Shown piece by piece: positions 12,615 through 64,000 of a stretch of 64,000 nt of DNA. Within the stretch, counting starts at the first letter, position 1. Every line of letters begins with the position of its first letter. Under the pieces are notes generated by a model. The model was not told the origin of the DNA and did not search any database. It saw only the letters and a list, made by a program, of their open reading frames with translations. Source of the stretch: Yuukianura sp. NJ FZ-2021 (taxonomy: Eukaryota); the NCBI GenBank assembly GCA_046563655.1, contig CM102286.1, positions 14,880,001-14,944,000 on the forward strand. Reading direction: 5' to 3'. The translations under genes and the position numbers were made by a program.

Positions 12615-13475
12615 TTACTTTCCAAATCGCTGTTCACTTTGTTCGTAAATTCGGAGCCAGTTTTCCAAATCCTGTTCATCGCATTCCGGCATGTACTTGT
12701 TTTCGTAGTAGAATTCGGAGTAAACGGATTGCCAAATCAAAAACCCCGAGTTCCTGACAGTTCCTGAATCCTTGGCTCCAGTGCGTACAATCAAATCGGG
12801 TACGGGATACTCCTGTTCAGCCATCCAAACGTTCTTTGAAATTGCTTCGGCAGAAATTGGTTCAACAGAATCGGAATTTTGAATTTTTCGAATTGCTTCT
12901 ACAATGTCGTCTTGTCCTCCATAGTCCATTGCCAAGTTGAGACAATGTTCTGTTCTGGATTCAGTTTCAGTTTCAATTTTGATCATATTTTCAATTATGT
13001 TTTTTGGTAGTCTGTTCCTCTGTCCAATGAATCTCACTCGACTGTTGAATTTATCAGCAAGTTGTTTAATAATTGAAAACTGTCCAAGCACTAACTTGAA
13101 CAAAATTTCCAATTCCAATTTTGAACGGCCAAAGTTGTCTGTACTGAGAACCCAAAATGTAACTGTGTGAACCCCGAGTTCAAATGCTGCTTGCGCTGTT
13201 TTCAAAACGGCGTCTTTCCCGCGCGAGTATGCAGTTAATCCTGTCACGTTTGCTTGGCGGGAATACCGTCGGTTTCCGTCCGGAACAATTCCGAGGTGTT
13301 TCACTTTCGTCGTCAGTGTTCGGCCTGGTGCAGTTTTACCGCCATTTTGAGTATTGGGTACCGATTTCCAGCCATTTTTAGTATTGGGTACCGATTTCCA
13401 GCCATTTTGTGTATTGGATACCGATTTCCCTCCTTTTTTGGTATCGGTTGCCGATTTCCCGCAGTGATTTCCCAT
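12615..13475 (-). CDS. cis-prenyltransferase (UppS/undecaprenyl-PP synthase family), intronless, with a repetitive N-terminal extension
   Basis: KHLGIVPDGNRR, FWVLSTDNFGRS, LNLAMDYGGQDDI, PDLIVRTG, RNSGFLIWQSVYSE and C-terminal QRFGK. Confidence 0.9.
   Translation of the reverse strand: MGNHCGKSATDTKKGGKSVSNTQNGWKSVPNTKNGWKSVPNTQNGGKTAPGRTLTTKVKHLGIVPDGNRRYSRQANVTGLTAYSRGKDAVLKTAQAAFELGVHTVTFWVLSTDNFGRSKLELEILFKLVLGQFSIIKQLADKFNSRVRFIGQRNRLPKNIIENMIKIETETESRTEHCLNLAMDYGGQDDIVEAIRKIQNSDSVEPISAEAISKNVWMAEQEYPVPDLIVRTGAKDSGTVRNSGFLIWQSVYSEFYYENKYMPECDEQDLENWLRIYEQSEQRFGK
13341..13460. repeat. 30-bp coding tandem repeat, 4 copies (10-aa unit KSVPNTKNGW)
   Basis: Units of GCCATTTT-GTATTGGGTACCGATTTCCA type start at 13341, 13371, 13401 and 13431. 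Confidence 0.9.
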
Positions 13476-14377
13476 TTCAAAAATATTTTAGACGAAAAAG
13501 TATATGCCAACTTTGTAACACACCTTGAGCTTGTTGTTTCAATATTTAAAAAATTTAAAATTTAAATTTCCAAAATTTTGAAATCGTTTGTACGCGGAAA
13601 TGAAAAGACTTTTCTCGAACGTTTCAAAAGGGAAGTGAAGAACTGCCCTTGTGAATAATGTTCATACCACAGCCGACTTACGAGGAGTGGCTTTTAGAAT
13701 ATTTTTGAAAACGTTTTTAAAGCAGTGCGGAGTCTCACGATGAATGGGTCCTTGGCCGTTTCGCAAAATGTTTTTGTTTTTCTTAAAAAGTTCTCAAGAA
13801 AATCAAAGTAATGATGCACAGCAAGTTTTGAAATTTGAATGCATTTTGCATTCTTGATTCACATTAGATTGAGTAACCTAGCTACCACATGCAAAACGTA
13901 AGAATTTTCGAATGCAATTTAAAATTTAATCTTAATTTTAATTTAATTTAATTTTTTTAAACAAACTTTTATTGCCAAAAATTCTTATTAATTGTGAGAA
14001 ATGTTTTTACCGAATTAGTTGTTTTGAGAAACAAAAACAAGGTTATTTCGGCACTTACTTTTTTTTGAAAATCTGCACTCCTAACCCAACATTTGTTGAT
14101 GCAATTTTTCTTAACAGATTGCGACATAAATTATTACTACATGATGAAAATTCTTACGTAAACATATTTTCGTCGAATTGGTTTTAATTTTTTTTTTGGC
14201 TTAATAATTTAATTGGCATTTTGATAACTTAACTTTTATCTGACGAAAAAGTTGAAATTTTTGAGTCGATTGGTTTTAACTTATCTTTTGATCAGTTTGC
14301 GTCCACTTTGTATTGATTGCAAATTTTCATGTACCTCAATTCTGCGACATTTGTCAGTTTTTAGCTGTCTTTAAATC

Positions 14378-21868: not shown

Positions 21869-24800
21869 ATGGACTCCATGACGTTAAAGCGGGAAGTTGC
21901 AGCAGTGCTGCAGGACGTTCCGAATCATACTCTGCCGTTGTTCAAGTTTCGTGAAATGTTTGAACGGCGGTACCGTCGGTCCGTATCGACTTCCGACTTG
22001 TACCGAATGCGAGATGTCGTTTCGATTTCGGACAATTCCAATTCAGTCGGAATGGGCGGTAGGAAGATTTCACTTTCGGAGGAATGGACTGTCGAGGTAA
22101 CAAAAAAAAGACGGTTTCGATGTAAAATTTTGACCTTTGACCTTGACCTTTTAGGGTGACGATGGATTGAGTGTGTATTGTCACAGCCATCCTCCGTCGA
22201 TTCACGGTGGATTTGGATCAAACCGTCTCGGATGGGCCGAAAAAGAGATCGGTATTAATTTACCGAACGTGGAAATTGATTTTCGGACGTTGTCGGCACG
22301 GCTCGTGTCGGTTTTGGCTGCTCATCAAGGCGTATTTCCTCTATTCAGGTCCGTTTCACCCAAATTTAAAAAAAAACATAAAAAAACATGAAATTTTGAA
22401 ACTTTTTTTCCCCCCAAAATTTCAGTTTTTTGGATTGCTACGGTGCACAATTTGGTGGAATGAAGCGATTGGACGACGGCGGTGGTGTGCCATTGGAGCA
22501 CTTGATTGCGTCTGTGCATGGAGTGGAAATTACGCATGCGGAAAATGGAATGAAACGAGTTCAATGGAAGAACAAGGGAGAATTCGAAACTGGTAATTTC
22601 AAAATGTTTTTCAAGATTTTCTTTTTCTTTTTTTGAAATTTTTGGATTTGAAGGGTTCCCTGGTGGACATGTCCCGACCTACGACCCCTTAAGTCTCCCG
22701 CTGGCTCAACTGTCACGTGAATTGGTCGATCTGCTCAAAACGACTCCGCGCTGCTCAATTCCATTTTCAAAATTGATTCCCGCCTACCACCACCATTTCG
22801 GAAAACAGTGTCGTGTGGCAGACTATGGACATGTAACTCTCTCATCTCTTTTGCAAACACTGCCCAACACTATCCAAGTACTCGGAGAAGGAGCCAATCG
22901 GATCATCACTTTGGCACACAAGGCTCAAGTAAGGTCAAAGGTCATTGACCTTTTTTCGAAAACTGGCTTCCTGTTGTATTTGAAATGAAAGATGACTAAC
23001 CACTTATCACTTTCGCGAATCGCGACCACCTACCACTTATCACTTTCGCGAATCGCGACCACCTACCACTTTCCCGACCATTTATCACTTTTGCGAATCG
23101 CGACCACCTACCACTTTTCCGACCACTTATCACTTTTGCGAATCGCGACCACCTACCACTTTTCCGACCACTTATCACTTTTGCGAATCGCGACCACCTA
23201 CCACTTTTCCGACCACTTATCACTTTTGCGAATCGCGACCACCTACCACTTTTCCGACCACTTATCACTTTTGCGAATCGCGACCACCTACCACTTTTCC
23301 GACCACTTATCACTTTTGCGAATCGCGACCACCTACCACTTTTCCGACCACTTATCACTTTTGCGAATCGCGACCACCTACCACTTTCCCGATCACTTAT
23401 CACTTTCGCGAATCGCGACCACCTACCACTTTCCCGACCATTTATCACTTTCGCGACCACCACCTACCACTCTCCCACAGACCCTTTCCAAAAATTATAG
23501 AAAATTATTGACTTTTTGTTGTAATTAAAGTCAAACGTCATTGACCTTTTCTTAACAAAGTAATTGACTTTTTGTTGGATTTCACGTCAAACGTCATTGA
23601 GTTTTTTTCAAGAATGACTTTTTGTGGCATTTAAGGTCGAAAGTCATTGACCTTTTTAATAAATTGTTGACATTTTGCTATGTTTTAGATGAAACGTTTT
23701 GCCTCCGATGTGTTCCGAGTGCTCAAAGGTCAACCGGGAATCAAAAAGCAGATTCGAGTGGCTGACTTTCCGCAGTTGTTTGCTGTGACCTTTCCCTCCA
23801 GAAGTTTTTGTCCAGAAGACTACGGACTTTGCTTTTTTTCTGATCTTGTCACGGAATTAGTCGACCACTTTTCAATGATCACTTTGGTCCACAATGACCT
23901 CGGAGAAGAGATGCTTGCGATTCCCAAAAGAGAACAAACGCTGCATGAACAACAGAAAATGAAGATTTTCGCTGCCGAAGTCAGTTTTAAGCATTGCATT
24001 TAAAAATTTGTTTTCGGAAAGTCAAAATTTGTAATTTTGTTCAGGTTGTGGAACTCTTGCGACATTCCATCCGGTGTGAAATGCAATTTTCGAAATTCAT
24101 TCCCTCGTATCACCACCATTTTGGAAAACAATGCAGAGTGTCTGATTATGGATTTACGAAATTAGCGGAACTTTTTGACGCAATTTCGGACACCGTGAGT
24201 TGCGAATTCGCAAATTGTGCAATCGAGGCCACCACGGAAGAAAAAATTCTGCGTTTGACTCCTAAGGAACAAGTGAAGGTAAAACTTTTTCAATTTTTGC
24301 ACATGTGCAGTACTGATTTTAAAAAGTTTCTTTGCAGGTCGTTGGAGGTCAAATCCGAGAAGTTGTTGAAAAGCAACTGGAGATCGGACTTGTGACGAGA
24401 GTTAGTGACCTTGAAGAAATTTTTCTGGCTCAACATGGATTTGCACTGAGAGTTGACCTCTGCGGAGCCTCTGACCTGCGTGACCTTTTGCATCGACTGT
24501 TGTTCCCCTGGGTCAAGGTGGAGGGGGAAGTGATTCGGATTGTGGCAGAGGAGGAGAAGCGACTGCGCATGACGGGGGAGGAGCTTATTGCGACTTACGC
24601 GGGAACTGGAGTCTTTGAAATGGAAAAAGGCTTTGGGCAGTTGGACATTGGAGAGCAGGGCATGACCTCCGCTGACCTTGAAGAAAAATTTAACAAACTC
24701 CGAATTTTCGGAGAGGAAGTCCGAACTTTGCTAGAGGAAGCGGGAGGGTACTTGGGAATTCAAAATATTGAGGCAGCATATAGTCAAAAGTAAGAATTCG

Positions 24801-28407: not shown

Positions 28408-29925
28408 TTAGATTTTCTTGGTGAGGATGTAGAGACTGAAACGAACAGAGCCAACGCCCTCTCGTGAGTAGTACAAATCCATGTTTTCCTCAAACGCTCT
28501 GCAAATCACTGGAATGAAAACATCATCTAGAAAGAAAAAAGTAAAAAATCAGTCCATATTTTGAGATATCGATGGATAAAATTGGATAAGTTATCGAAAT
28601 ATCTTGGATAAACTGACGAGTGGGGTCATTGAATTGGACGAAGATGTACGGAGTCCAGTTCCAGCGCCCTTTCTTGTCCTTGAGGTTGTCCGGCTTCCCT
28701 TGTTTCTTGATTCCTTCCTTAAATACGGCTACTGGAACGCCTGGAGCTGGATAGTAGGTCACGCTGCCCATCGTCGTTTCCTCGGGCCCGTCCGGCATGC
28801 AGTGAATTCCGACATGAGTTTTCTGGAGAATTGAAATTTTAAACATTTTCGTGCAACAGTTGTAGTTTTTGGCTCAAAAGTTAGAAGTGTTTACTACCAT
28901 AAAATCAGTCCGAGCTTTCTGGTTGTTGTAGGGCGCATGTTTTTTCATTGCTTCCATGTAAACGTTGAAGTAACGACGGGAGGGGTCGGCATTGTCGTAG
29001 TTCTTTTTCAAATAGGATTCGAGTTTAGCCATTGGTTTTGGTTGCCAGTCGAAAATCTGTTGAGAAATAACGTATTTTGTAAACTTGATGTCACGTGACA
29101 CGTAATGTTAAAAAATGGAAGTTACGTGGTTGAAACGAATGAGAACACAGGGTTTGCCGTCTTTGTAGCCAAAGTTGTTGGCTGCAGTGCAGCCACCGGC
29201 ATTTCCCACATCTGTCGAGAGATAACAAAGTTAGGAGATAAAAAGTATCCGATATTGTAAGATAATCGATGAAATATCGGTAAGATACTTGGTCTTACTG
29301 TACTGATTGATTTCAGAAACAGTTTTCCCGAGTCGTTTGCTGTAGATTTCCCAGCTGTTTGAGATGTTGAGACTGTAGTAAATTGTGTAGCTCTGGATTC
29401 GTTCAAAGTCTTTGGCTTTCGACGTGATCGGAGCAGTGGGAAATACACTCAGCCCAGTAGCAGTACCCAGAATGACCGGTTCTGCTCTGCTCAGGCCCGT
29501 AATTCCTGGCTTCAGGTCACCCGAAGTCTGGATCAGAATGATCAACCAGAGGAAGAAGAACGTGAACACGAAAAAGTAGTACATGATGTAGAAGATGAAG
29601 ATTTGCACTGAAATAACAACAATATAACATCCATAGTACATCAGTATCCAGCCAATTGGTGGTAGAGGTTACATAATCAGCTGATCAACTCACACCAACT
29701 GATTCCACCTCTGCCCAGAACCCGTTTTGTGGTGGGATTGTAGATGAACTCTCCGAGCTGGGCCATTTTGGACTTGTCTTCGTCTTCCATTCCAGTCATG
29801 TCCAATTTGGAAGGAGCCATGGACTCCCCCGGTAACTGCTCACCACCATCCTTGGCTCTTGATTCAGTCGGAGCCGGTGGAGCTTCACCTTTGACATCAT
29901 TCGGCTCAGTACCTTCGCTGGCCAT
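28408..29925 (-). CDS. Na+/K+-ATPase beta-subunit-like (nervana family, divergent), multi-exon
   Basis: FIYNPTTKRVLGRGGISW, a TM helix, GCTAANNFGYKDGKPCVLIRFNH|IFDWQP, YYP, PYIFVQF and ICRAF..GSVRFSL. Confidence 0.85.
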
Positions 29926-30528
29926 CGTCAATCAGTCGATCTATGAAAAAGAGATGGTAGATTAATCACAAAAACTTAAGTTAATTGATCGCATGTTGAG
30001 TAATAATGAATCTCACCACGAACGACGATAAACAAAGAACGAGATATTTGAAAAGTTTCACTCCCGCCTGCTTGCTACACACAAAGAGACGTCTCAAAGA
30101 GGGGGTTGACAAATCGCGAGAATCGCAGATTCTCGCGGGAATAAAAAACGTAAAGTGCGGGAAATCTAATTCCGCCAATCAAGGTTGGTTGGTAGAGCAG
30201 CCGTTTTGAAAAAAAAACATACTTTTTGAGCTGGCTGACTGCAATCAGCTAACTGCATCTGTTGCTATGACGATTTTTAATTTTTAATTTCAGAGCGATG
30301 AATGGAAATGCACTTGTGATGTAGGATGAGGAAGAGGATTTATGTGAAGAAAATATTATATAGTAATTATGATAGTTTTTATTGTGCCAATTCGGTTTAT
30401 GGTACTTTTTTAAATATTAAATATCAATAAATTAAGTATAATTTATAAGTTATAAATTATAATTTATAAATATAAATCAGAATTTTCCAGTGAAAGTGGT
30501 TATAGCTAATAGAATTTTTGCTTTTGTT

Positions 30529-31332
30529 TTAGCATTTGCAACCAACGGAGCACTTTGATCCTTCTGAGTCTCCGCACTTGCAAGTTACCTCGCAGCATTT
30601 TCCAGCATCTCCGCACTTGCATGTCACTGTGCAGCAATTTCCAGCATCTCCGCACTTGCAAGTTACCTCGCAGCATTTTTCAGCATCGCCGCACTTGCAA
30701 GATACTGTCAACGTGCAGCAGTCGGGTTTTCCAGCATCTTCACACTTGCAAGTCACTGTGAAGACGCAGCATTCCGGTTTTCCAGCATCTCCGCATTTGC
30801 AAGATACTGTCGCTGTGCAGCAGTCGGAATTATCTCCGCACTTGGAAGTCGTCACCGTGCAGCAATCGGATTTTCCAGCATCTCCGCACTTGGAAGTTGT
30901 CACTGTGCAGCAGTCGGACTTTCCAGCATCTCCGCCCTTGCAAGTTATAACGCAGCAGTCGCATTTCTCAGCATCTCCGCACTTGCAAGATACTGTGAAG
31001 ACGCAGCATTTTCCAGCATCTCCTCGCTTGCCGGATACTGTCAACACACAGCAGTCGGATTTTCCAGCATTTCCGCACTTGCAGGCTACTGTTATTTTGC
31101 AGCAGTCGGATTTTCCAGTTGCTTCACACGATTGAGCAGTTGTGGTTTCTGTAAATGGAAAAAAGTTACAATCGTGCTAGGAATTTAGAAAATTCGTTAA
31201 AAAAAAACTTGAAAAGAAGAGTTGTAGAAAGGCAAATTTTGAAAAGAAGAGTTGAAAAAAGGCAAATTTAAAAAAGAACAATTTTAAGAAATGAAGATTT
31301 TGAAAAGTTGACTTACTTTGACAGCAGGACAT
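30529..31332 (-). CDS. Long repeat-built metallothionein-like protein, 211 aa with 50 Cys, 2 exons (31332-31317, 31148-30529)
   Basis: MSCCQ|K.. followed by about 13 CC-x3-5-CKC-GDAGK-type repeats. No signal peptide, almost no aromatic residues, and an MRE cluster upstream. Confidence 0.85.
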
Positions 31333-31425
31333 TTTTGAAGAATGTTTTTTTCGTGGTAATACTTTGAGAAGTTTGTAGAAAAGTGAATTGGAAGTTAAGT
31401 TGAGCAAGTGAGTTAAGAACGGGAG

Positions 31426-31555
31426 CTTTTATATGATTTGCTTCCCCTTTTAGCGTTTGTTACTCTAACAAAGTGTCGAGTGCAAAATGAAGTGAGCCGT
31501 GTGCAACATTTTTAGTATCTACGGGCGGTGTGCAAAAGCAGAAGTTCCTCGTGCA
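31426..31555 (-). promoter_or_regulatory. Metallothionein promoter: TATA box plus three perfect and one near-perfect metal response elements (MTF-1 sites)
   Basis: Minus-strand TATAAAA at about 31427-31433, TGCACTC at 31484-31478, TGCACAC(GGC) at 31505-31499, TGCACAC(CGCCC) at 31534-31528 and TGCACGA at 31555-31549. Confidence 0.8.
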
Positions 31556-31886
31556 AACATTTTTCAACATAAGTGAGTAACAGGACAATGCCTCGCATGT
31601 AATTTCCATTGCTTCTTGCATTTCATAAGTTAAAGTTAAATTAATTTAGTTCCAATGGGTTTCTTATGCAACTAAAATTAAAAGCCAATGCAGGTTATCC
31701 GTTTTCGAAGCGCGTAAATTCAAAAATCGTGCATTTCAAATTCCAAAATGCTTCACTCCAAAAAAACATTTAAAAAAACTGTTACGTACTCTCGTCTCGG
31801 GAAAGAATTAGACGAAATTTAATACTTATAATTAATACCAATTATCATCCATCATTAATCATTACAAATCCAGTCCTGTTGGTTCA

Positions 31887-32104
31887 GTAATTGTACTTTC
31901 GTTGTAATTGTACTTTCGTTGTAATTGTACTTTCGTTGTAATTGAACTTTCGTTGTAATTGTACTTTCGTTGTAATTGTACTTTCGTTGTAAATGGACTT
32001 TCGTTGTAAATGGACTTTCGTTGTAATTGGCTTCGGGGTAATTGGACTTTCGTTGTAATTGTTTTCGGGGAAATTCATTCGTGGTAATTCACTTCGTTGT
32101 AATT
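31887..32104. repeat. 17-bp minisatellite GTAATTGTACTTTCGTT, about 12 copies, degenerating to the right
   Basis: Directly visible. Confidence 0.95.
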
Positions 32105-43320: not shown

Positions 43321-44713
43321 TTAGTAGATTGCAGAAGTTTTGTTAGTAAATTCCCAAAGGAAAGACAAATCACTTTCTCCGCGTCTACCACAAATCGGAA
43401 GTGAAACTGGTTGTCCATTTCTTCAAATTCAAAGTAAATTGTTAGCTTTTCAAAAAACAAAAAAAAAGACTTTAGATTTTGAAATTTTTATAATATTTTA
43501 CCCATTGCTTTTGAGACATTGAGTAGCCCTTCTGCCAACGATGTACTGAATCCTGTACTTTGAATTTCCCACGGCAACAAATCTGTAGCCGCTCTGACTC
43601 CCGCCATTTCCACGCTCAGTGATGAAATTGTTCTGGTTCTCTCCCGATGTCAATGTAAACAGCCAACTCTCTAATGACAACATAAATTTTATCAATAAAT
43701 TTTGTTAGTGCTCAGAATGCTAAGCATGCGTGCTGGGGCCTCGCCCCAACCCGTTTAATCCTCCAAATTTTTCAGCCTAACGATCATTATTTCCAAAAAA
43801 CAATGTTTTGGAATTTTTGAATTTGTCATAAATTAGGAAAAGACACTTGAGTGATTTTCTCAGCCTAATCGTGACTTTTCCAAAATTCCTCCTGTAGAAA
43901 GTTAGAAGGTGTCATAGTGTATTGGAAAAACAATATTTTGGAAAATTTCAATCTGTCATGAAAAAGGAAGTTACACTTTAGTGAAGTTTTCAGCCTAATC
44001 GTCACTTTTTCCAAATGCCTTCTCTAGAAAGTTAGAAGGTGTGATGGTGTATTGAAAAAACAACATTTTGGAAAATTTCAATTTTTCATGATTAAGGAAA
44101 ATACATTTTTGGGAAATTGTTATCCTAATCATGACTTTGTCCAAAAGTCCTCCTGCAGAGAGTTAGAAAATGAGATGGTGTTTTAAAATATCAATGTTTT
44201 GGAATTTCTTAAAATTCTCATAAACGAGGAAAATACACTTCATAGCATAGCCCAGAAACTGTGATATAAACCAGTAAAGTCGAGAGTAAGCAAATCAATT
44301 AGTAACAATGCAATTCCGGAATTATCTCTCAGCTGTAACTTCTCATTAGTATAAAAAGACCTAAAATATATATTTGAAATTTTCAACTAACTTCTCTTAA
44401 CTGTCCAGTGGAACGGAGCAGTTTCGTCATATTTTTTCACCGTAACGTCACCAGTATTACTTCCTTCCTTTGCTTTCTCTGCGTACAGAGAGAATCCCTG
44501 TGTCAATTTTTCAAAAAGTAAAGATTTGTTCAAAATTTAAAATTTTTAGTTCAAAAAAAGTTCACTCACTTCATCTTCACTGTCCGATTGCTTGAGAGCA
44601 CTGGTGATGATGTAAGTCCCCTCGGCTATTGGTGATTGTTGCGATTTCACAAACACCAAAAAACTTTCACTCAAAATGAAAATTGTGAAAGCGAAAAATA
44701 AAAATCGACCCAT
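43321..44713 (-). CDS. Small secreted protein with a ricin-B/beta-trefoil-like C-terminal motif, about 4 exons
   Basis: Signal peptide MGRFLFFAFTIFILSESFLVFVKS, then IAEGTYIITS. The spliced end reads YRIQY..QCLKSNGNGQPVSLPICG..FLWEF. A TATA-like site lies at about 44772. The middle exon junction is uncertain. Confidence 0.5.
43770..44240. repeat. ~130-bp tandem repeat, about 3.5 diverged copies, intronic
   Basis: CAGCCTAATC at 43861 and 43991, TATCCTAATC at 44121, and shared GAAAGTTAGAAGGTG and TTTTGGAAAATTTC blocks. Confidence 0.85.
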
Positions 44714-49262: not shown

Positions 49263-50644
49263 TCAGTTTAGAGAAGGTTCTGTCAGCACAAGGAGATTGA
49301 TGACACTGTCGCTGATCATGTGGGCGAGAATAAGAAAAGTTGACTTGGACATGACATGAAAGTGACCAACGTTGAAGGTCAAAGGTCGGCATGACTTGAG
49401 ATGTTTTCGGTCAAACGAGGTCAATGACCTCTGGTACGCTCCTCTGCAGTAAATTGTAGACAACTTGGACACTGATCGGCAAAAACAACAGCTGAAATGG
49501 AGGGAAGCGAGTATGAGAAGGGCACAGGAAGTGACGAGGAACAGCGACATAGCATTAAGGAACTTGTGGAGTCGGATGGAGGTAAAAGTGGACAGAACGA
49601 TGGATACGAACATGACAGGGAAGTGGATGGGAGTAAAGTACAGGAAAAAGTCCAGCAGGAGACTGTGCAACACTTGCAGCGTCCGGTATGACCTTTGACC
49701 TGTTCCATTTCCAAGGTCTTCAGTAGGACTGAGTCTTCAAAACAAAAACGAATCAGTTGTATTTTACGGTATTTTGAGAAACTAGATCTGGGTTTATTTC
49801 AAGCAGTCTGTGCCGGTCGCATAATAAGGGGACCGGCCTTGACTGTTTACCTGCGTAGCCAAAATGCTGTTGAATTCAAATGAACGAAAGTTGGCAGCAA
49901 ATTTGTAAAGTAGGAGGAAATGTCAAACCAGTAGCCAATAGTCCACATCAGAATCAGCGGAATATTCAAATTTTGTTGAGCGGCATCTGTGTTAAAAAAT
50001 CTGAAAAATGGATATTTATGCCTTGCTGCGACAATGAACCCAGGGGGCAACATGAGACCGGTGAGGACCGCAGAGACGAATAGCAAACGCAATTTTACTT
50101 CAGCCCCATCTTTCGAATTTGGAGATACTTTTAACGTTTTGCCTAAAACACCAAATTTTAAGCAGTTTAAATTAATTTGTTATATTGTAATGTTAGTATT
50201 TTAATATCCTATTAATATCTTTTACCTAATTCCTTAGTGAGTTGCAGTAGACAGTTGAAGTTGGCCACTCTGAGGTCCAAGGTGACAAAAGCATAAGATA
50301 GGTGGATAATGCCCAGCAGTGTGTTGGAGATGCACAGGGTTCCCATGGCAACGTCCCCTGCCCAACTCTGTTCCTCCATTTTTGTGTTGTAGACCAAGGC
50401 ATAAGTGACCCACGGAATAAATGCAAGTCGCGTTGCCACAATTCCCAAGCAGTACGATATCCATATCCACTTTTTAAATTTTGCCGCCCTTGACACAACC
50501 CATTTTTTCCCACCAAGTTGATTTTTTTGAGAAAGGGCATTTTGTACAACTCCGGTGACTTGGTTCCACCGAATCGGAATGACACCAAGGACCAAACCGA
50601 TTTTAAATGCCCAAATAAAAGTTTGCAGAGTTGCTCGAAATCAT
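49263..50644 (-). pseudogene. GR-like chemoreceptor paralog 1, with a 2-bp frameshift after codon 6 and otherwise intact 3 exons
   Basis: Colinear with paralog 2: ATG ATT TCG AGC AAC TCT --G CAA versus TCT TTG CAA. C-terminal SCRPLTFNVGHF..STFL..VINLLV. Confidence 0.7.
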
Positions 50645-51268
50645 TTTCAAAATTGCCCAACCTTCTCGAAAAATTTTCTTTATCTTCCACCACTTTCCAG
50701 TAAGGAAAAACTTGGACTAACGTAAAAATCTTTCATGTTGTTTACGAACATTGCTCAAACGATGTTTACTAAAACACAAAATTAGCAAAAATTTCATTAG
50801 TGGAAAAGGGATTGGTAAGAAAGGAAGGTCATGTGTAGAATTAAGCTTGAAAAAGAATTTTTGAAATAATGATTTTTGAACTGTGGAGAAAGTGACTTTC
50901 ACTTGTTCCATTTCTCGCCACAAGCCCCGCCCATGTCAAATTGACCACGCCCCTCTACAACATCAATCTTCTCAGCTTTCCAAAAAAAAATACAAGGCTG
51001 CATGGGAGTTTCCTGTTTTTATATTTATAATTTATATTTATTTATTTTTTATATATTTTTTTATATTTTTGTATTTTAATAGTGGCATTCTTTTCTTTTT
51101 GACAAAATGTGTATTGGTCTAAGATATGTACTAGATAGCATTTTGTTTCATGCTAGGTGCCATTCCACCGCTGGAATTCGGTACGTAATGAAAATAAAGA
51201 GTTACAAGATTAAAACTCCTTTTTGAAATAATTAATTTTTCGAATGATATTTTTTCTACTCTTTTACT

Positions 51269-52690
51269 CTAGTCTAGAGACGGTTCTGTTAACACAAGAA
51301 GGTTGATGACACTGCTGATGATCAAGTGGACGAGATTAGGAAAAGTTGACTTGGACATAACATGGACGTTGCCCACGTTGAAGGTCAAAGGTCGACATGA
51401 CCTGAGATGTTTTAGGTCAAACGAGGTCATTGACCCCTTGTAGGACCCTCCTCTGCAGTAAACTGACGATAACTTAGACACAGATCGGCACAAAAAGCAG
51501 CTCAAGTGGAGAGCAGTGAGGAGCAGAACGGCACAGGAAGTGCCGAAGGTGAGTGACATAACACTGAGGAACTGGTGAAGTCGATTGGAGATGAAGGTAG
51601 ACAGGACGATGGACACGAACAGCATCGGGAAGTAGGTGGGAGCAAAGTACTGGAAAAAGTCAAGTAGGAGACTGTGCAGCACTTGCAGTGTCCGGTATGA
51701 CCTTTGACCTGTTCCAACCCTTCGAAATCCAGTAAAATTGAGCCTACAATAGAAAAGGATTATATTTGTAGCTTTACAGTATCTCTACATTTTAGAATTT
51801 AAAATTTACACTAAAAATCTGAGTTTATTTGTAGCAGTCTGCGAAGGTCGCAAAATAAAGGGACCATCCTAGACTGTTTACCTGCGTAGCCAAAATACAG
51901 TCGAATTTAAATGAACGAGAATTAGTAGCAAATTGGTGAATTGCGAGGCAATGTCAAACCAGTAGCCAAAAGTCCACATCAGAGTCAGCGGAATGTTCAA
52001 ATTTTCCTGGGCGGCATCCGTATTTAAAAAGCGGAAAAATGGGTATTTGTATTTTGCCGCAAAAATGAACCATGGGGGCAACATGAGACCAACGACTACT
52101 ACTGACACGAATAGGAAACGCAGTATTACTTCGCCTCCATCCTTTGAATCCGGAGCTACCCTTAGCGTTTTGCCTAAAACCAAATTTAAATTAATTAGAC
52201 TATATGCTTACGAGGGAAACCTTTTGTCAAAAGGTTTCCCTTGTTAATAAATTATAGTATTTTTGTCACATAATTGTGCAGTGAGTTGAAGTAGACTGTT
52301 GAAGTCGACCACTCTGCGGTCCATAGTGACAAAACCATAAGATCAGCTGACGATGCCCAGCAGTGTGTTGGAGATAGAGAGTGTTCCTGTGGCGATGTCC
52401 CCTGCCCAACTCTGTTCTTCCGTTTTCGTTTTATAGACCAAGACATAAGTGGCCCATGGAATGGTAGTAACTCGAGCTGCTAAAATTCCCAAGTAGAACA
52501 GGATCCAGAACCACTTTTTGAATTTTGCCGCCTTTGAAACAAGCCAATTTTTCCCGCCGTATGGATTTTTTTGAGAAACGACATTTTCTGCAACTCCAGT
52601 GACTTTGTTCCACCGAATCGGAATGACACCAAGGGCCAAACCGATCTTAAATATCCAAATGCAAGTTTGCAAAGAATTGCTCGAAATCAT
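51269..52690 (-). pseudogene. GR-like chemoreceptor paralog 2, with an in-frame TGA at 52345-52343 and otherwise intact 3 exons
   Basis: GIVS*SYGFVTMDRRV aligns to GIIHLSYAFVTLDLRV of paralog 1. Splice sites and downstream exons are intact. Confidence 0.7.
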
Positions 52691-52902
52691 TTCAAAATTT
52701 TTACAAATTTTTCCAATTGCGTTTGCACAATCTTTCTTTCACTTTCACCGCTTTTCTATAAAATTCCCTCCCAAAATTTCACAAAGTAAATTTTTGTGAA
52801 CATTGTTTGAGCAATGTTTACAAACAACGCAAGGTCAAATGTGGAATTTAGTTTAAAAATGAATTTAAAAGTTTAAACGGGAGTTATTGGTTTTTTGGAA
52901 TG

Positions 52903-59535: not shown

Positions 59536-60269
59536 TTAAACACAAGACGCTCTTGTTCGTGGCGCCATCTATACGAAATTTCAAACCCCGGAAAAGGCGG
59601 GAATTTGTTTAAACTTTTCACAGATGTTTTTTTTAGCAAAAAAAAATGCAGAACCACGTTTTTGGGTAAAAACTTCGCAAAAAAAAATCAAAACAAACAG
59701 AATCTGCGAGATTAGGAAGTCTGTGTATTGTGCACTCCTGATTTTATTTTAATTAGTTTATTAGTAGTTTAGATTTAGCAAATGAGTTGACTTGTTTTGG
59801 TCAGGATCGCGGTTAGAGCTAAAAGCTGATGTTTCACTTGAGGTCAACTGATTAAAGGTAAAGGTAACTTCGTGCATTATTTTAACAAAATACAACACAT
59901 TTTACAAATTGCTAAGCATAGCAAATCCCAGTGTGATTGACCTTATCGTTGAATGACCTATTTCCAAAGTGTGTACCATGTTTGGAGTGGTGTTTACATA
60001 AGCGAATTTGCTTTGTCTGTCAGAAGTGATATTTCTGTGGGCCATTGCTACAAAGTACAAGAGATTTGAGAACTAAAGTTAAGTTCAGTAGTGTTTTGGA
60101 AGTGGGATCAGTTTGTTGACTGGTGGTTGGGAGAAGTGTCTGTCTATTTTGTAAATGTGTCAACAAGTGTCACGATAACTTTCTGTGGTTTGCTTAATTT
60201 AATGTCTTATCTTTCCAATTTCGGAATATCCTGACGTGGTTTTTATCCTTTTCTTGTTGTTTCCAGCGG

Positions 60270-63200
60270 ATGACATTAATTTCACCGAAGTTTATTAAAT
60301 TCCTGATCGTCACATCATCGTCATCACTTCCACGACTACCAACTGCCAGGACTTCCACGGTTCCACGGAGGTCACTACAGATTCATCGTCTACTTGGAGT
60401 TAGAACCACAGAAACACAATCTTTAGTCTTTATTCACACCTCATCGAAGTGGTTCTGTACTGAAAACTTCACTTCAGATGAGAATCCAAACGTACATCAA
60501 ACGATTACCAAAATGACATCGACCGAGAGTCACACAGCTACTCACATGGACGAACCAGTCAGGGATGTGGGCACCAGTCCAGGTCAAGTTCAAGGTCACC
60601 GTCAATTCTACCAGTTTGCCAAAGAGGAGACAAGCACAGTAGATGCTGCCGAAGATGGACCGAATACTGCCAGTACTTCTGCCTCCGCAAGTGGGAAAAT
60701 TACTGGTGGGCCATCGGCGATCAAGAAACGATCAAAATCGTACAGATTTCGGGGCAATTCAAGAGAATTGATTGAAATGGTGGAACGTAATATTATTGGA
60801 CGTGACACGGGCTTCCAAGGGCCATTTGGACCGAGACGAGGTATGTGTAATGAATTAACTTAGCTAATTAATTACGAAACTTGGTTGTTGTTTTAATCTC
60901 TTCCTCATTCCTATTCAAGATGTTTCGCAATTCACTCTCATTCCCGACGCATTAAATTTAAAATTAAAGATTATGTAACGACTTGTTGAGTAACTGCCAA
61001 ATTGCATGTCCAACTCCAGGAACTTTTTTATTTTGCCACTTCTGGGAAGTGCTAAGATAACAAGAGTGACATTGACAACTTGAGTCTCATCCTTTGTCTT
61101 TATCCAAGGCATTTGCAAACTCCAAATGACTTGGATAAATCAACTGCAATTAATTAACTGATGTTTGTCTGTTTTTAAGCTGTCTATATGGACCATACAG
61201 CGTCTGGCCAACCTCTGCGATGCATCGAGGATTTTCTAAGAGATCATGTTCTGCCATATTATGGAAACACACACACAACAACAACTCTCACGTCATCACA
61301 AACTACCATGTACAGGTACGCTCAAAATCGCTGAAAATCGCTGGAAAAGGAAATTCTGAAAATAAGACCATTTATACGACTTTGTCCGTCTGTCTGTCTG
61401 TCTGTTTGTACCAACGAAAACAAAGAGCTTCTTTTTAGCTTTCATAAACATCGTAAATGCTTGTCAGATGTTATAAAAAGTGCAGCAGATCTGTGATCTC
61501 TTGCAAATTTTGCAATGATGTTGAAATATTATTTGTTTTTTTGTAGACATGAGGCAAGAGACATCATTCGGAATGCCGTTGGAGCTTGTGAGCAAGACGC
61601 TGTGATTTTCTGTGGAAATGGTTCCACATCTGCAATCCATACGATTGTGCATGCCTTGGCAGGAGATTTCAACCAACCGCGCCCTGTCGTCTTCCTTGGT
61701 CCACATGAACATCACTCCAACATTCTTCCATGGAGAGACATTGGAGCCAAAGTAATTAAAAATATGACCAAAAGAGAAAAAGTTAAAACAACATGTTTAC
61801 TACTAAAGGAAACAGTTTTGGATAAAACTGCTTTTCCTTTTACAACGTAAATTCCAAAGTTCAATGTCATTTTAAGTTTCCGCGTGCCAAAGAATCCAGG
61901 TCAATTTCCATTGTAAATTTTATGGTTGAAAATGAAAAGTGTTTTGGAATTTGAGTTTTTCTGTGGGCGGGAGTAACTTTCCGTGATATTTTTTTCAAAC
62001 ATTTTTTTTAGAAAAAATGTTAACTGTTTTGTTTTTGTGTTTTTTAGTTGGTGAATGTTCCCGAAGATGCTAATGGTCTCCTTGACCTCAATTTCTTGGA
62101 AGAGAGGTTAAAAGAAGCCTCGGAGAAGAGGGATGATCTGATTGGTGGAGAGGGGAAACGGAGGCTTCTAATTGGTGCTTTCTCGGCCGCTTCCAACATT
62201 AGTGGAATTCCAACGAATGATGTTGCAGTGACTGTTCTGATGCACAAATATGGTGGGATTGCACTGTGGGACTACTCTGCAGCAGCCCCGCATGTTCAAG
62301 TGGTCATGAATCCAGTAGTCTTCAGTTCGAATCAACCTCAGGGAGCGGCTAAAAAAGATGCTCTATATTTCTCTGGTCATAAGTTTGTTGGTGGACCACA
62401 AACGCCTGGTGAGTTATTGCGAAACTTACAAAAATTATCACCAATTTTTTGGCAATAACCACACAGCTCCACGTGCCTGCTTGGTGTGAAAAACAAAAAG
62501 AAAAAATAGCTTTTAGTTTTGTTTTTTGCAAAAAGTTTTGCATATAGCCCATCTTACTTACAGTTTTCTTGCATTTGCTGTAATTTTTGCACATTGATGC
62601 TGGAGGGATCTCAACTAGATCTGTTTTTTGTTTGTTGTTCTTTGTCTGGTTTGAGTTGGGATGAAAATGAAGCGTGAGAAATTCCATTAGGATTTTGAGA
62701 GATGAAGAGATGAAGGTCACCTTTAGAAGATTGCCTGTCAATGTGCGATTGGACTCGGAGGAAGTGAGTCGTGCTCACAAAAGTCGTTAAAGTTATTTTT
62801 AGTTTCCTTTTGAGACAAAGTGATTTTGACTTTGGGAGTTAACTGACAGCTTGAGGTTGAAAGTGTTAATTTCTCAATTAGCAAATACTTTAATTAGCTA
62901 AATTTTTGGTTTTTCGCAGGGGTACTTGTTGCAAAGAAATCCTTGTTTGAAAATAGAAGTTCAAGTGTTGGTGGAGGTGGAACAGTTTTCTTTGTCACTG
63001 CTGACTCACATCGATACTTGAAGGTTAGTGGATTTTAATTTTAAATTTAAACTTTTTAAGTTTCGAAACCTACTTTATGCATTTACCGTGTCTGTCTGTT
63101 GGCCACAATTATCTCGAATTTCCCAATATTTCCGGAATCTGTTAAATTCGTTCCTGGTCAAAGGTCTTTTTTTCAAAAGGTCAAAGGTCAACTTTTTCAT

Positions 63201-64000
63201 GTTACCGTTCATAAAACCATAGTATACTTAAGTTCAAAAGGGCATGGCCTTGTCACAAGTCGTTTGGGAATGCGTCTTTCGCTACTTTCGTACACTCTGG
63301 GTTACATCCGGATTTTTATTAATATATTACTCCCATTTGATATATGTTAGTACGTTTTTGTTCGCTTGACCTGAATTTTCATGTGAGAACAGAAAGTGGA
63401 ATCTCTGGGTGTTGAAATTTGGAGAATCATTTATTTTTGTAACTTTTGCTTTTATTTTTGCAGAATGTTGAGTTTCGAGAAGAGGGCGGAACGCCAGGGA
63501 TTTTAGAGAGCATTCGACTTGGTTTGGTCTTTCGTCTTCAACAAACTGTTGGATTCCAAAATATTATTTCACGTGAAGCAGTTTACGTCAAGTGAGAAAC
63601 AAGGAAAAATCAAAAATTTAAAAGAAACAAGATTTTGAGTGTCAAAATGAGTCATTTGGGAAATTAAAAATTTGGATTGTGGTTTTTGTCTATTAGGAAA
63701 ACACTTGCGGATTGGTCAAAAATTCCAGAAATCAAGGTTTTAGGACCAACTCACTCTGCACGTTTGCCCATTTTATCATTTCTGATTGAACATGGTCCAT
63801 CGGTGAGTTGACAATTTTGTTTTGTACTTTTTTGATGTTGGTCATTTTGACTTTTTTGTTTACCCAACAATAATTTTTAGTAAACAAAAAGTTAATTAAA
63901 ATGTCATTTTGTGTGTAAATAGGGATACTTTCTACACTACAACTTTGTTACTGCTGTTCTCAATGATTTGTTTGGAATTCAAAGTCGAGGTGGATGTGGC
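60270..64000 (+). CDS. Class-V PLP aminotransferase / cysteine desulfurase-like protein, truncated at the window end
   Basis: GPFGPRR|AVYMDHTASG, YGNTHT, HEHHSNILPW, AFSAASNISG, WDYSAAAPH, FSGHKFVGGPQTPG (PLP Lys), EEGGTP and LNDLFGIQSRGGC. Confidence 0.9.
63055..63290 (-). mobile_element. Second, diverged DINE/Helentron-like copy in reverse orientation inside an intron
   Basis: CGAAACC..CTTTATG..CCGTGTCTGTCTGT at one end and TTTCGCTACT at 63277 mirror the 48891-49220 element. It carries AGGTCAAAGGTCA at 63178. Confidence 0.45.

Follow-up and report, generated by a model that had tools for sequence, protein, structure and literature searches.

Does a cysteine-rich tandem-repeat gene in the springtail Yuukianura sp. 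NJ FZ-2021 encode a metallothionein (MT), and how does its repeat unit compare with those of the long MTs already described? The gene lies in a 64,000-nt stretch of DNA, hereafter the window (GCA_046563655.1, CM102286.1:14,880,001-14,944,000, forward strand). We consider it likely, with a probability of about 0.8, that the product is functional, acts in the cytosol as a metallothionein-type chelator, is inducible by metals and arose by tandem expansion of a four-cysteine unit. The original prediction had proposed MT-like function under MRE control; this is well supported by the layout of the gene, the statistics of its promoter and conservation between paralogues, while metal binding and metal induction are what we infer from established MT biology, and the independent elongation also proposed there is likewise an inference.

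Gene structure and protein composition

The spliced minus-strand model bears out the two-exon gene that had been proposed, with a first exon of only 16 coding nucleotides (Table 1). Its coding sequence of 636 nt specifies a protein of 211 amino acids and 21.2 kDa with 50 cysteines (23.7%); exon 2 carries the rest of unit 1, 12 repeat units and a C-terminal cysteine cap. CC or CxC motifs hold 45 of the 50 cysteines, and 43 of 49 in the paralogue described below. There are 27 basic and 26 acidic residues, with 26 Lys, three Asn and two Pro; the aromatic residues are two Phe, and His, Trp and Tyr are absent. Complete or near-complete absence of aromatic residues is one of the criteria for MTs. 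Val, Thr and Ile together make up 20% of the protein; spacers this rich in these residues are unusual for MTs, which, with the two Phe, weighs against the MT reading. The predicted lack of a signal peptide is in agreement with a Kyte-Doolittle scan, which by hydropathy detected no hydrophobic N-terminal segment, the best 11-residue mean (1.4) being internal and driven by cysteines. The cysteine content, the CC/CxC grouping and the lack of a signal-like segment fit the MT superfamily definition as given in the accessible text of PMC7826182, which includes a cysteine content of around 15-30%.

Table 1. Positions of gene, promoter, repeat and duplication features within the window.
Feature	Position	Strand	Details
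Exon 1, coding part	31317..31332	(-)	16 nt: Met-Ser-Cys-Cys-Gln plus one base; ATG at 31332
Intron	31149..31316	(-)	168 nt, GT-AG, phase 1; against paralogue 162 identities, 5 mismatches, 3 gap positions
Exon 2	30529..31148	(-)	620 nt: 2 nt completing split codon, 205 whole codons, TAA
Units 2-7, first six-unit block	30823..31104	(-)	20 Cys
Units 8-13, second six-unit block, and cap	30532..30822	(-)	24 Cys, plus 3 in cap
AATAAA polyadenylation signal	30378..30383	(-)	~145 nt past stop; also in paralogue
TATA box, TATAAAA	31427..31433	(-)	~100 nt 5' of ATG; identical in paralogue
MRE-a, TGCACTC	31478..31484	(-)	TGCRCNC consensus
MRE-b, TGCACAC	31499..31505	(-)	TGCRCNC consensus
MRE-c, TGCACAC	31528..31534	(-)	TGCRCNC consensus
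MRE-d, TGCACGA	31549..31555	(-)	Near-consensus, final base mismatched
Duplicated block	30352..31778	(-)	Copy at G000:C4:14948067-14949516; takes in promoter, exons 1 and 2, intron and 3' UTR

The neighborhood of the gene holds several further features. Directly downstream lies a Na/K-ATPase beta-subunit-like gene (window 29231-29931, minus strand), which falls below the Pfam cut-off on one exon. A 45-bp minisatellite of ~10 copies with 96% matches (22999-23471) sits within a multi-exon gene and leaves several frames open. At 12615-13487 (minus strand), a single frame with an N-terminal Met-Gly and a 10-residue tandem repeat matches cis-prenyltransferase PF01255 (E 7.9e-53). A secreted subtilase (PF00082, 41315-43010, minus strand) has a prodomain exon and is possibly of a horizontally acquired type. 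In the region 49265-52700, multi-pass membrane genes form a tandem duplication with 78% identity across 1.4 kb; we take them to resemble gustatory-receptor-like genes. A repeat element with a 130-bp unit (43795-44240) has an inverted copy, 81-84% identical, some 34 kb away at G000:C4:14958354-14958757.

Organization of the repeat array

The repeat unit has four cysteines in the arrangement CC-x3-5-CKC, followed by a spacer of the GDAGK type. Cutting the protein at every CC yields 13 units of 13-18 residues, which agrees with the roughly 13 repeats first proposed, though the full motif is kept in eight of the 13; unit 1 is divergent. Both CxC cysteines are gone from unit 3, and units 5-7 lack one each, so that five cysteines are missing from the first six-unit block, a loss that we counted against the MT reading. 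The CC pairs persist in all 13 units here and in 12 of the paralogue, and the cysteine-loss variants GKR, CKG and TSKC that had been singled out are real and common to both copies. The cap adds three cysteines and the protein terminates in CKC; CxCC occurs once, between units 4 and 5.

Units 2-7 and units 8-13 are 73% identical, and TRF reports periods of 39, 51 and 282 nt in the array. The block identity and the 282-nt period together show that the array includes a doubling of a six-unit block. Divergence between repeats gave pS 0.32 against pN 0.12 over anchored core columns, an anchoring that favors conserved columns.

Promoter and MRE cluster

A TATA box preceded by three or four co-oriented TGCRCNC elements within about 130 bp had been predicted and was found as three consensus sites and one with a single mismatch, the farthest of which spans 129 bp to the TATA box. 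All four point in the sense direction, their starts 21, 29 and 21 bp apart (21, 28 and 21 bp in the paralogue). Single MRE heptamers are common: the window holds 14, and shuffled sequence 28.2 on average. By contrast, none of 300 first-order Markov resamples of the 64 kb contained three co-oriented MREs in a stretch of 51 bp. A search of all 98.7 Mb of the genome for MRE-MRE-TATA returned 31 matches, against three for the control. Of the 31, 26 lie in satellite arrays of the TGCGCA type, two at the two MT-like promoters and three elsewhere, with no cysteine-rich frame near these last three. A triple-MRE pattern, modeled on the promoter and thus partly circular, likewise gave 31 matches, 29 of them in tandem arrays and two at these promoters. 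The promoter sequence itself matches only two genomic loci. No match to three MTF-1 motifs was found in the genome by a search that is sensitive to introns and ran without a positive control.

The TGCGCA-type satellites are dispersed and repeatedly match the MRE consensus; the copy at G000:C1:6532896 adjoins a retroelement-like frame. Transposon-like elements with inverted arms of 19-24-bp tandem units containing TGCACAC were also found (G000:C2:2912101-2913558, C3:7407745-7410761, C6:969098-976581, C3:7583293 and C4:7960458). These elements could confer metal responsiveness on neighboring genes or be metal-responsive themselves. An origin of the MREs from such arms was considered and rejected: the best match was 15 of 16 nt (E=0.32), and no significant likeness of the elements to the MT promoter was found.

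Duplication of the transcription unit

Genome matches to the protein fall in exactly two genes. The second copy, absent from the original prediction, lies 37.7 kb away, just outside the window (G000:C4:14948247-14948870), and encodes 216 amino acids with 49 cysteines (22.7%), with one extra Ser codon in exon 1 and the same donor site. It retains the intron, the TATA box, all four MRE-type sites and the AATAAA signal. The duplicated block is 92.5% identical over 1458 columns, and the whole transcription unit has recently been duplicated at the DNA level; since the flanks are unrelated and only 1.46 kb is common, this is a true duplication and not an uncollapsed haplotype. About 110 bp past the upstream edge of the block, at window 31887-32062, is a 17-bp minisatellite of 10.5 copies. 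Tail to tail with the second copy stands a cysteine-desulfurase-like gene (window 60198-64000, continuing to G000:C4:14947826) that runs into a TtcA-like domain.

Over 504 colinear nucleotides of exon 2 the copies differ at seven positions, six of them synonymous (p=0.0006, 20,000 simulations), and the reading frame is under purifying selection. One antisense frame, devoid of Met, has its wobble position in common with the coding frame and gives a similar score; the test by itself therefore cannot fix the strand. Because both copies carry identical cysteine losses, these are not errors; they arose before the duplication and are tolerated. Each copy has turned over its last three units independently, and the C-terminal third has diverged.

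Searches for relatives and structural modeling

Pfam returned no family, and no metallothionein profile, for exon 2, two sub-regions of it or the paralogue. Exon 2 found no match among 1130 near-length candidates (E<=0.001) or among 2593 longer ones (E<=10), and there were no matches to PDB sequences at E<=10. The atlas search with the whole protein or its C-terminal part gave no usable match, and none of 71 pattern matches in metagenome contigs was confirmed. The 50%-cluster library gave 14 weak matches of 20-37% identity; the five of these 14 that were examined were all unrelated periodic repeats and were set aside. The absence of homologues is weak evidence of novelty, because the libraries hold mainly metagenomic gene calls and cysteine-rich, low-complexity queries score poorly. 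Assignment to the MT family draws on composition and promoter, as there is no Pfam family, PDB match or credible homologue.

Within the genome, 12 of the 16 matches to the repeat pattern belong to the two genes and four are due to chance. None of nine matches to a CCG..CKC pattern combines an MT-like frame with an MRE cluster, and all eight matches to the C-terminal 63 residues (E<=10) fell in the two genes. Narrow pattern searches found no shorter metallothionein, and searches with PF00131 and PF02067 found no other MT, although they detected none of 14 controls. The share of the gene's words in one RNA metatranscriptome was 0.14, which we counted as no evidence of expression. Two AlphaFold2 runs produced unreliable models (mean pLDDT 49.5 and 44.0), both drawing about one strand for each unit of the C-terminal half, and none of the 42 Foldseek rows reached E<=0.001. 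Given the low pLDDT and the lack of a fold match, the models neither support nor exclude a beta-meander.

Comparison with known metallothioneins

At 211 and 216 residues, both copies exceed the length of classical short MTs (<100 residues). The MT of Orchesella cincta has 77 residues, the MTC protein of another springtail, Folsomia candida, is cysteine-rich, repetitive and much longer than MTs, and an annelid tandem-repeat protein has a longer repeat unit than ours. This annelid protein, from a soil invertebrate, is alike in mass (21 kDa here), in its tandem repeats and in cadmium induction, which is predicted here; the comparison is by description. MTC, the 'MT-like motif containing protein', is strongly induced by metals, up to ~200-fold by silver, according to the accessible text of PMC6512762 and PMC5097105, where it serves as a marker. 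Compared by description only, it and the Yuukianura protein may be related; MTC was not among the matches of our homologue search, which covered mainly metagenomic libraries and in which low-complexity queries score poorly, and PMC9543370 and PMC5490193 contain nothing on it.

A parallel in promoter structure is the O. cincta mt gene, described in the available parts of PMC1913499, PMC4987106 and PMC3081431 as having a proximal, sense-oriented MRE cluster with conserved TGCACAC cores, as here. The two promoters differ in that the O. cincta promoter is described with an initiator and DPE and ours has a TATA box; O. cincta also has a single-copy mt gene, in contrast to the two copies here.

Long tandem-repeat MTs are known from other arthropods. 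Millipede MT1L proteins exceed 130 residues, and GminMT1La of Glomeridella minima has 169 residues and 40 cysteines and binds 16-19 Cd (PMC12800444). The Yuukianura protein resembles MT1L, as there portrayed, in its length, its imperfect tandem repeats, the gain or loss of cysteines (loss here), its paralogous isoforms and its occurrence in a soil detritivore arthropod. The MT1L repeat, however, is the nine-cysteine D1a (four CxC plus C), whereas here a four-cysteine unit is repeated 13 times with CC alternating with CxC; by inspection, the runs of four CxC motifs seen in the published D1a and D1b are absent from the 211-residue protein. Spiders and horseshoe crabs also have long tandem MTs (PMC13168519). 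In spider MT3S and MT3L, a short repeat of seven cysteines, often with one lost, arose de novo and is present in three or in five to six copies (PMC13168519). Its published D3 pattern, Cx3[CxC]x2[CxCC]x4C, is absent here, and the units here are smaller and more numerous.

Among molluscs, the snail Alinda AbiMT4 has 319 residues and binds 30 Cd, and a limpet gamma domain contains CC pairs (PMC7826182, PMC11645667). In these accounts capacity scales with repeat number and CC-pair clusters bind Cd, and tandem expansion N-terminal to a distinct C-terminal cap is shared with the Yuukianura protein. The snail repeats are autonomous nine-cysteine domains, in contrast to the four-cysteine units here. 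Long modular MTs had been listed beforehand from some molluscs, tunicates, fungi and ciliates, a list that left out two published arthropod cases, the millipede MT1L and the five-repeat spider MT3L. The claim that the repeat unit is unusual held, as the unit matches no full D1a, D1b, D2, D3, CRS, Drosophila, malacostracan or branchiopod pattern in the accessible text of PMC12800444 and PMC13168519. Our literature search, with most subscription journals outside its reach, found no springtail MT with this repeat.

Proposed mechanism and origin

In the MT reading, an excess of Zn, Cd or Cu would activate an MTF-1-type zinc-finger factor, which would bind the three to four MREs cooperatively and raise transcription. 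The unfolded apo-peptide would then wrap metal ions in thiolate clusters, each probably spanning two or three adjoining units because a unit has only about four cysteines. Clusters of this kind would explain the loss of single CxC cysteines while CC pairs persist. Many CC pairs, high Lys with low Asn and the absence of His serve as a heuristic for Cd/Zn preference, and with 26 Lys, three Asn and no His our weak guess is that the protein would prefer these metals. The seven-cysteine spider D3 repeat is likewise suspected to be too small for an autonomous domain (PMC13168519, accessible text). Formation of metal-thiolate clusters with fewer than four cysteines per M2+ is used as an MT criterion, and myriapod MTs measured 2.5-3.0 (PMC12800444). 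At these ratios 50 cysteines would hold ~17-20 divalent ions, and ~12 at 4:1. By analogy with O. cincta, where gut-based Cd handling offers a physiological model (PMC1913499, PMC4987106, PMC3081431), the protein would act in the gut epithelium, which would be shed when the animal moults.

To judge from its sequence, the array probably has its source in a pancrustacean-type MT, whose opening CC-xn-CxC pair was expanded and of which the last unit and cap may be a remnant. Of the five elements in the malacostracan N-terminal domain pattern given in PMC12800444, four recur in this last unit and cap, a likeness of pattern only that suggests N-terminal amplification of the CC-xn-CxC pair; N-terminal duplication has been described for snail MTs (PMC7826182). 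Growth would have proceeded from unit expansion through doubling of the six-unit block to duplication of the gene.

Alternative explanations

It is conceivable, if unlikely, that a short hexapod MT gave way to a protein of de novo origin that has no relation to F. candida MTC, and whose Val/Thr-rich beta-meander aligns CKC with CC pairs at the turns into two unbroken metal-thiolate rows. Such a scaffolded, non-modular store, if true, would be unlike the autonomous-domain MTs described so far.

The main rival, which we also doubt, is that the gene encodes a metal-regulated thiol protein that forms no clusters, either with separate Cys4 sites at each CKC-spacer-CC on beta-meander turns (~12 ions, 4:1) or as a redox thiol buffer. 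The alternating Val/Thr/Ile-rich spacers, the roughly four cysteines per unit and the single strand per unit in the C-terminal half of both AlphaFold2 runs would suit it, but the unreliability of those models and the empty Foldseek search weaken the structural argument, and cysteine losses in four units would wreck isolated Cys4 sites, yet are common to both copies. There is also a precedent in the centipede cysteine-rich repeat protein LforCRSa, which did not hold up as an MT when tested as a recombinant protein, so that a metal-binding test matters for MT membership (PMC12800444).

Other identities for the protein fare worse. CC-rich tandem repeats occur in disulfide-cross-linked structural proteins, and an intracellular protein of this kind, such as one found in sperm or in cornified layers, its MRE-like sites being fortuitous, would be in keeping with the lack of homology to MT families; it is improbable because the MRE cluster, far beyond chance, immediately precedes the TATA box in both copies, and because there are only two Pro and no Tyr. 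That the protein is a Thr-x-Thr ice-binding beta-solenoid like the insect antifreeze proteins is very hard to credit: seven TxT motifs and regular cysteine spacing recall that fold, but the units are irregular (13-18 residues), the promoter bears MREs, no fold match was found, and disulfides are unlikely as there is no signal peptide. Equally remote is an artefact, whether a minisatellite open by chance, a decaying pseudogene showing its decay in the cysteine losses, or an uncollapsed haplotype, since the two further frames open across the array on the plus strand (200 and 206 codons) lack any Met, start, splice sites, stop, TATA box and polyadenylation signal all fit the minus-strand frame, the copies differ synonymously and their flanks are unrelated.

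Significance

We return to the metallothionein-type chelator. On the strength of its sequence, the 211-residue protein would work like a long multidomain MT and is very probably a metal-inducible chelator; the repeat variant is new and the design recurrent, and the finding overturns no principle. Hexapod MTs outside insects are almost uncharted, and the 2026 arthropod surveys, in their accessible parts, depict only Insecta for Hexapoda (PMC12800444, PMC13168519). The longest insect MT clade averages 62 residues (bioRxiv 10.1101/2020.06.25.172213), so that 211 residues would be more than three times that average and would represent another independent gain of capacity through tandem repeats. 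As the unit is too small for an autonomous domain, the protein tests whether long MTs need modular, independent domains. The compact promoter, with two MRE pairs each 21 bp apart, offers a probe for the springtail MTF-1, called 'still putative' in O. cincta (PMC3081431). The paralogue pair, with its shared cysteine losses and diverged C-terminal third, amounts to a natural experiment, and the gene and its promoter are a candidate biomarker for metals in soil.
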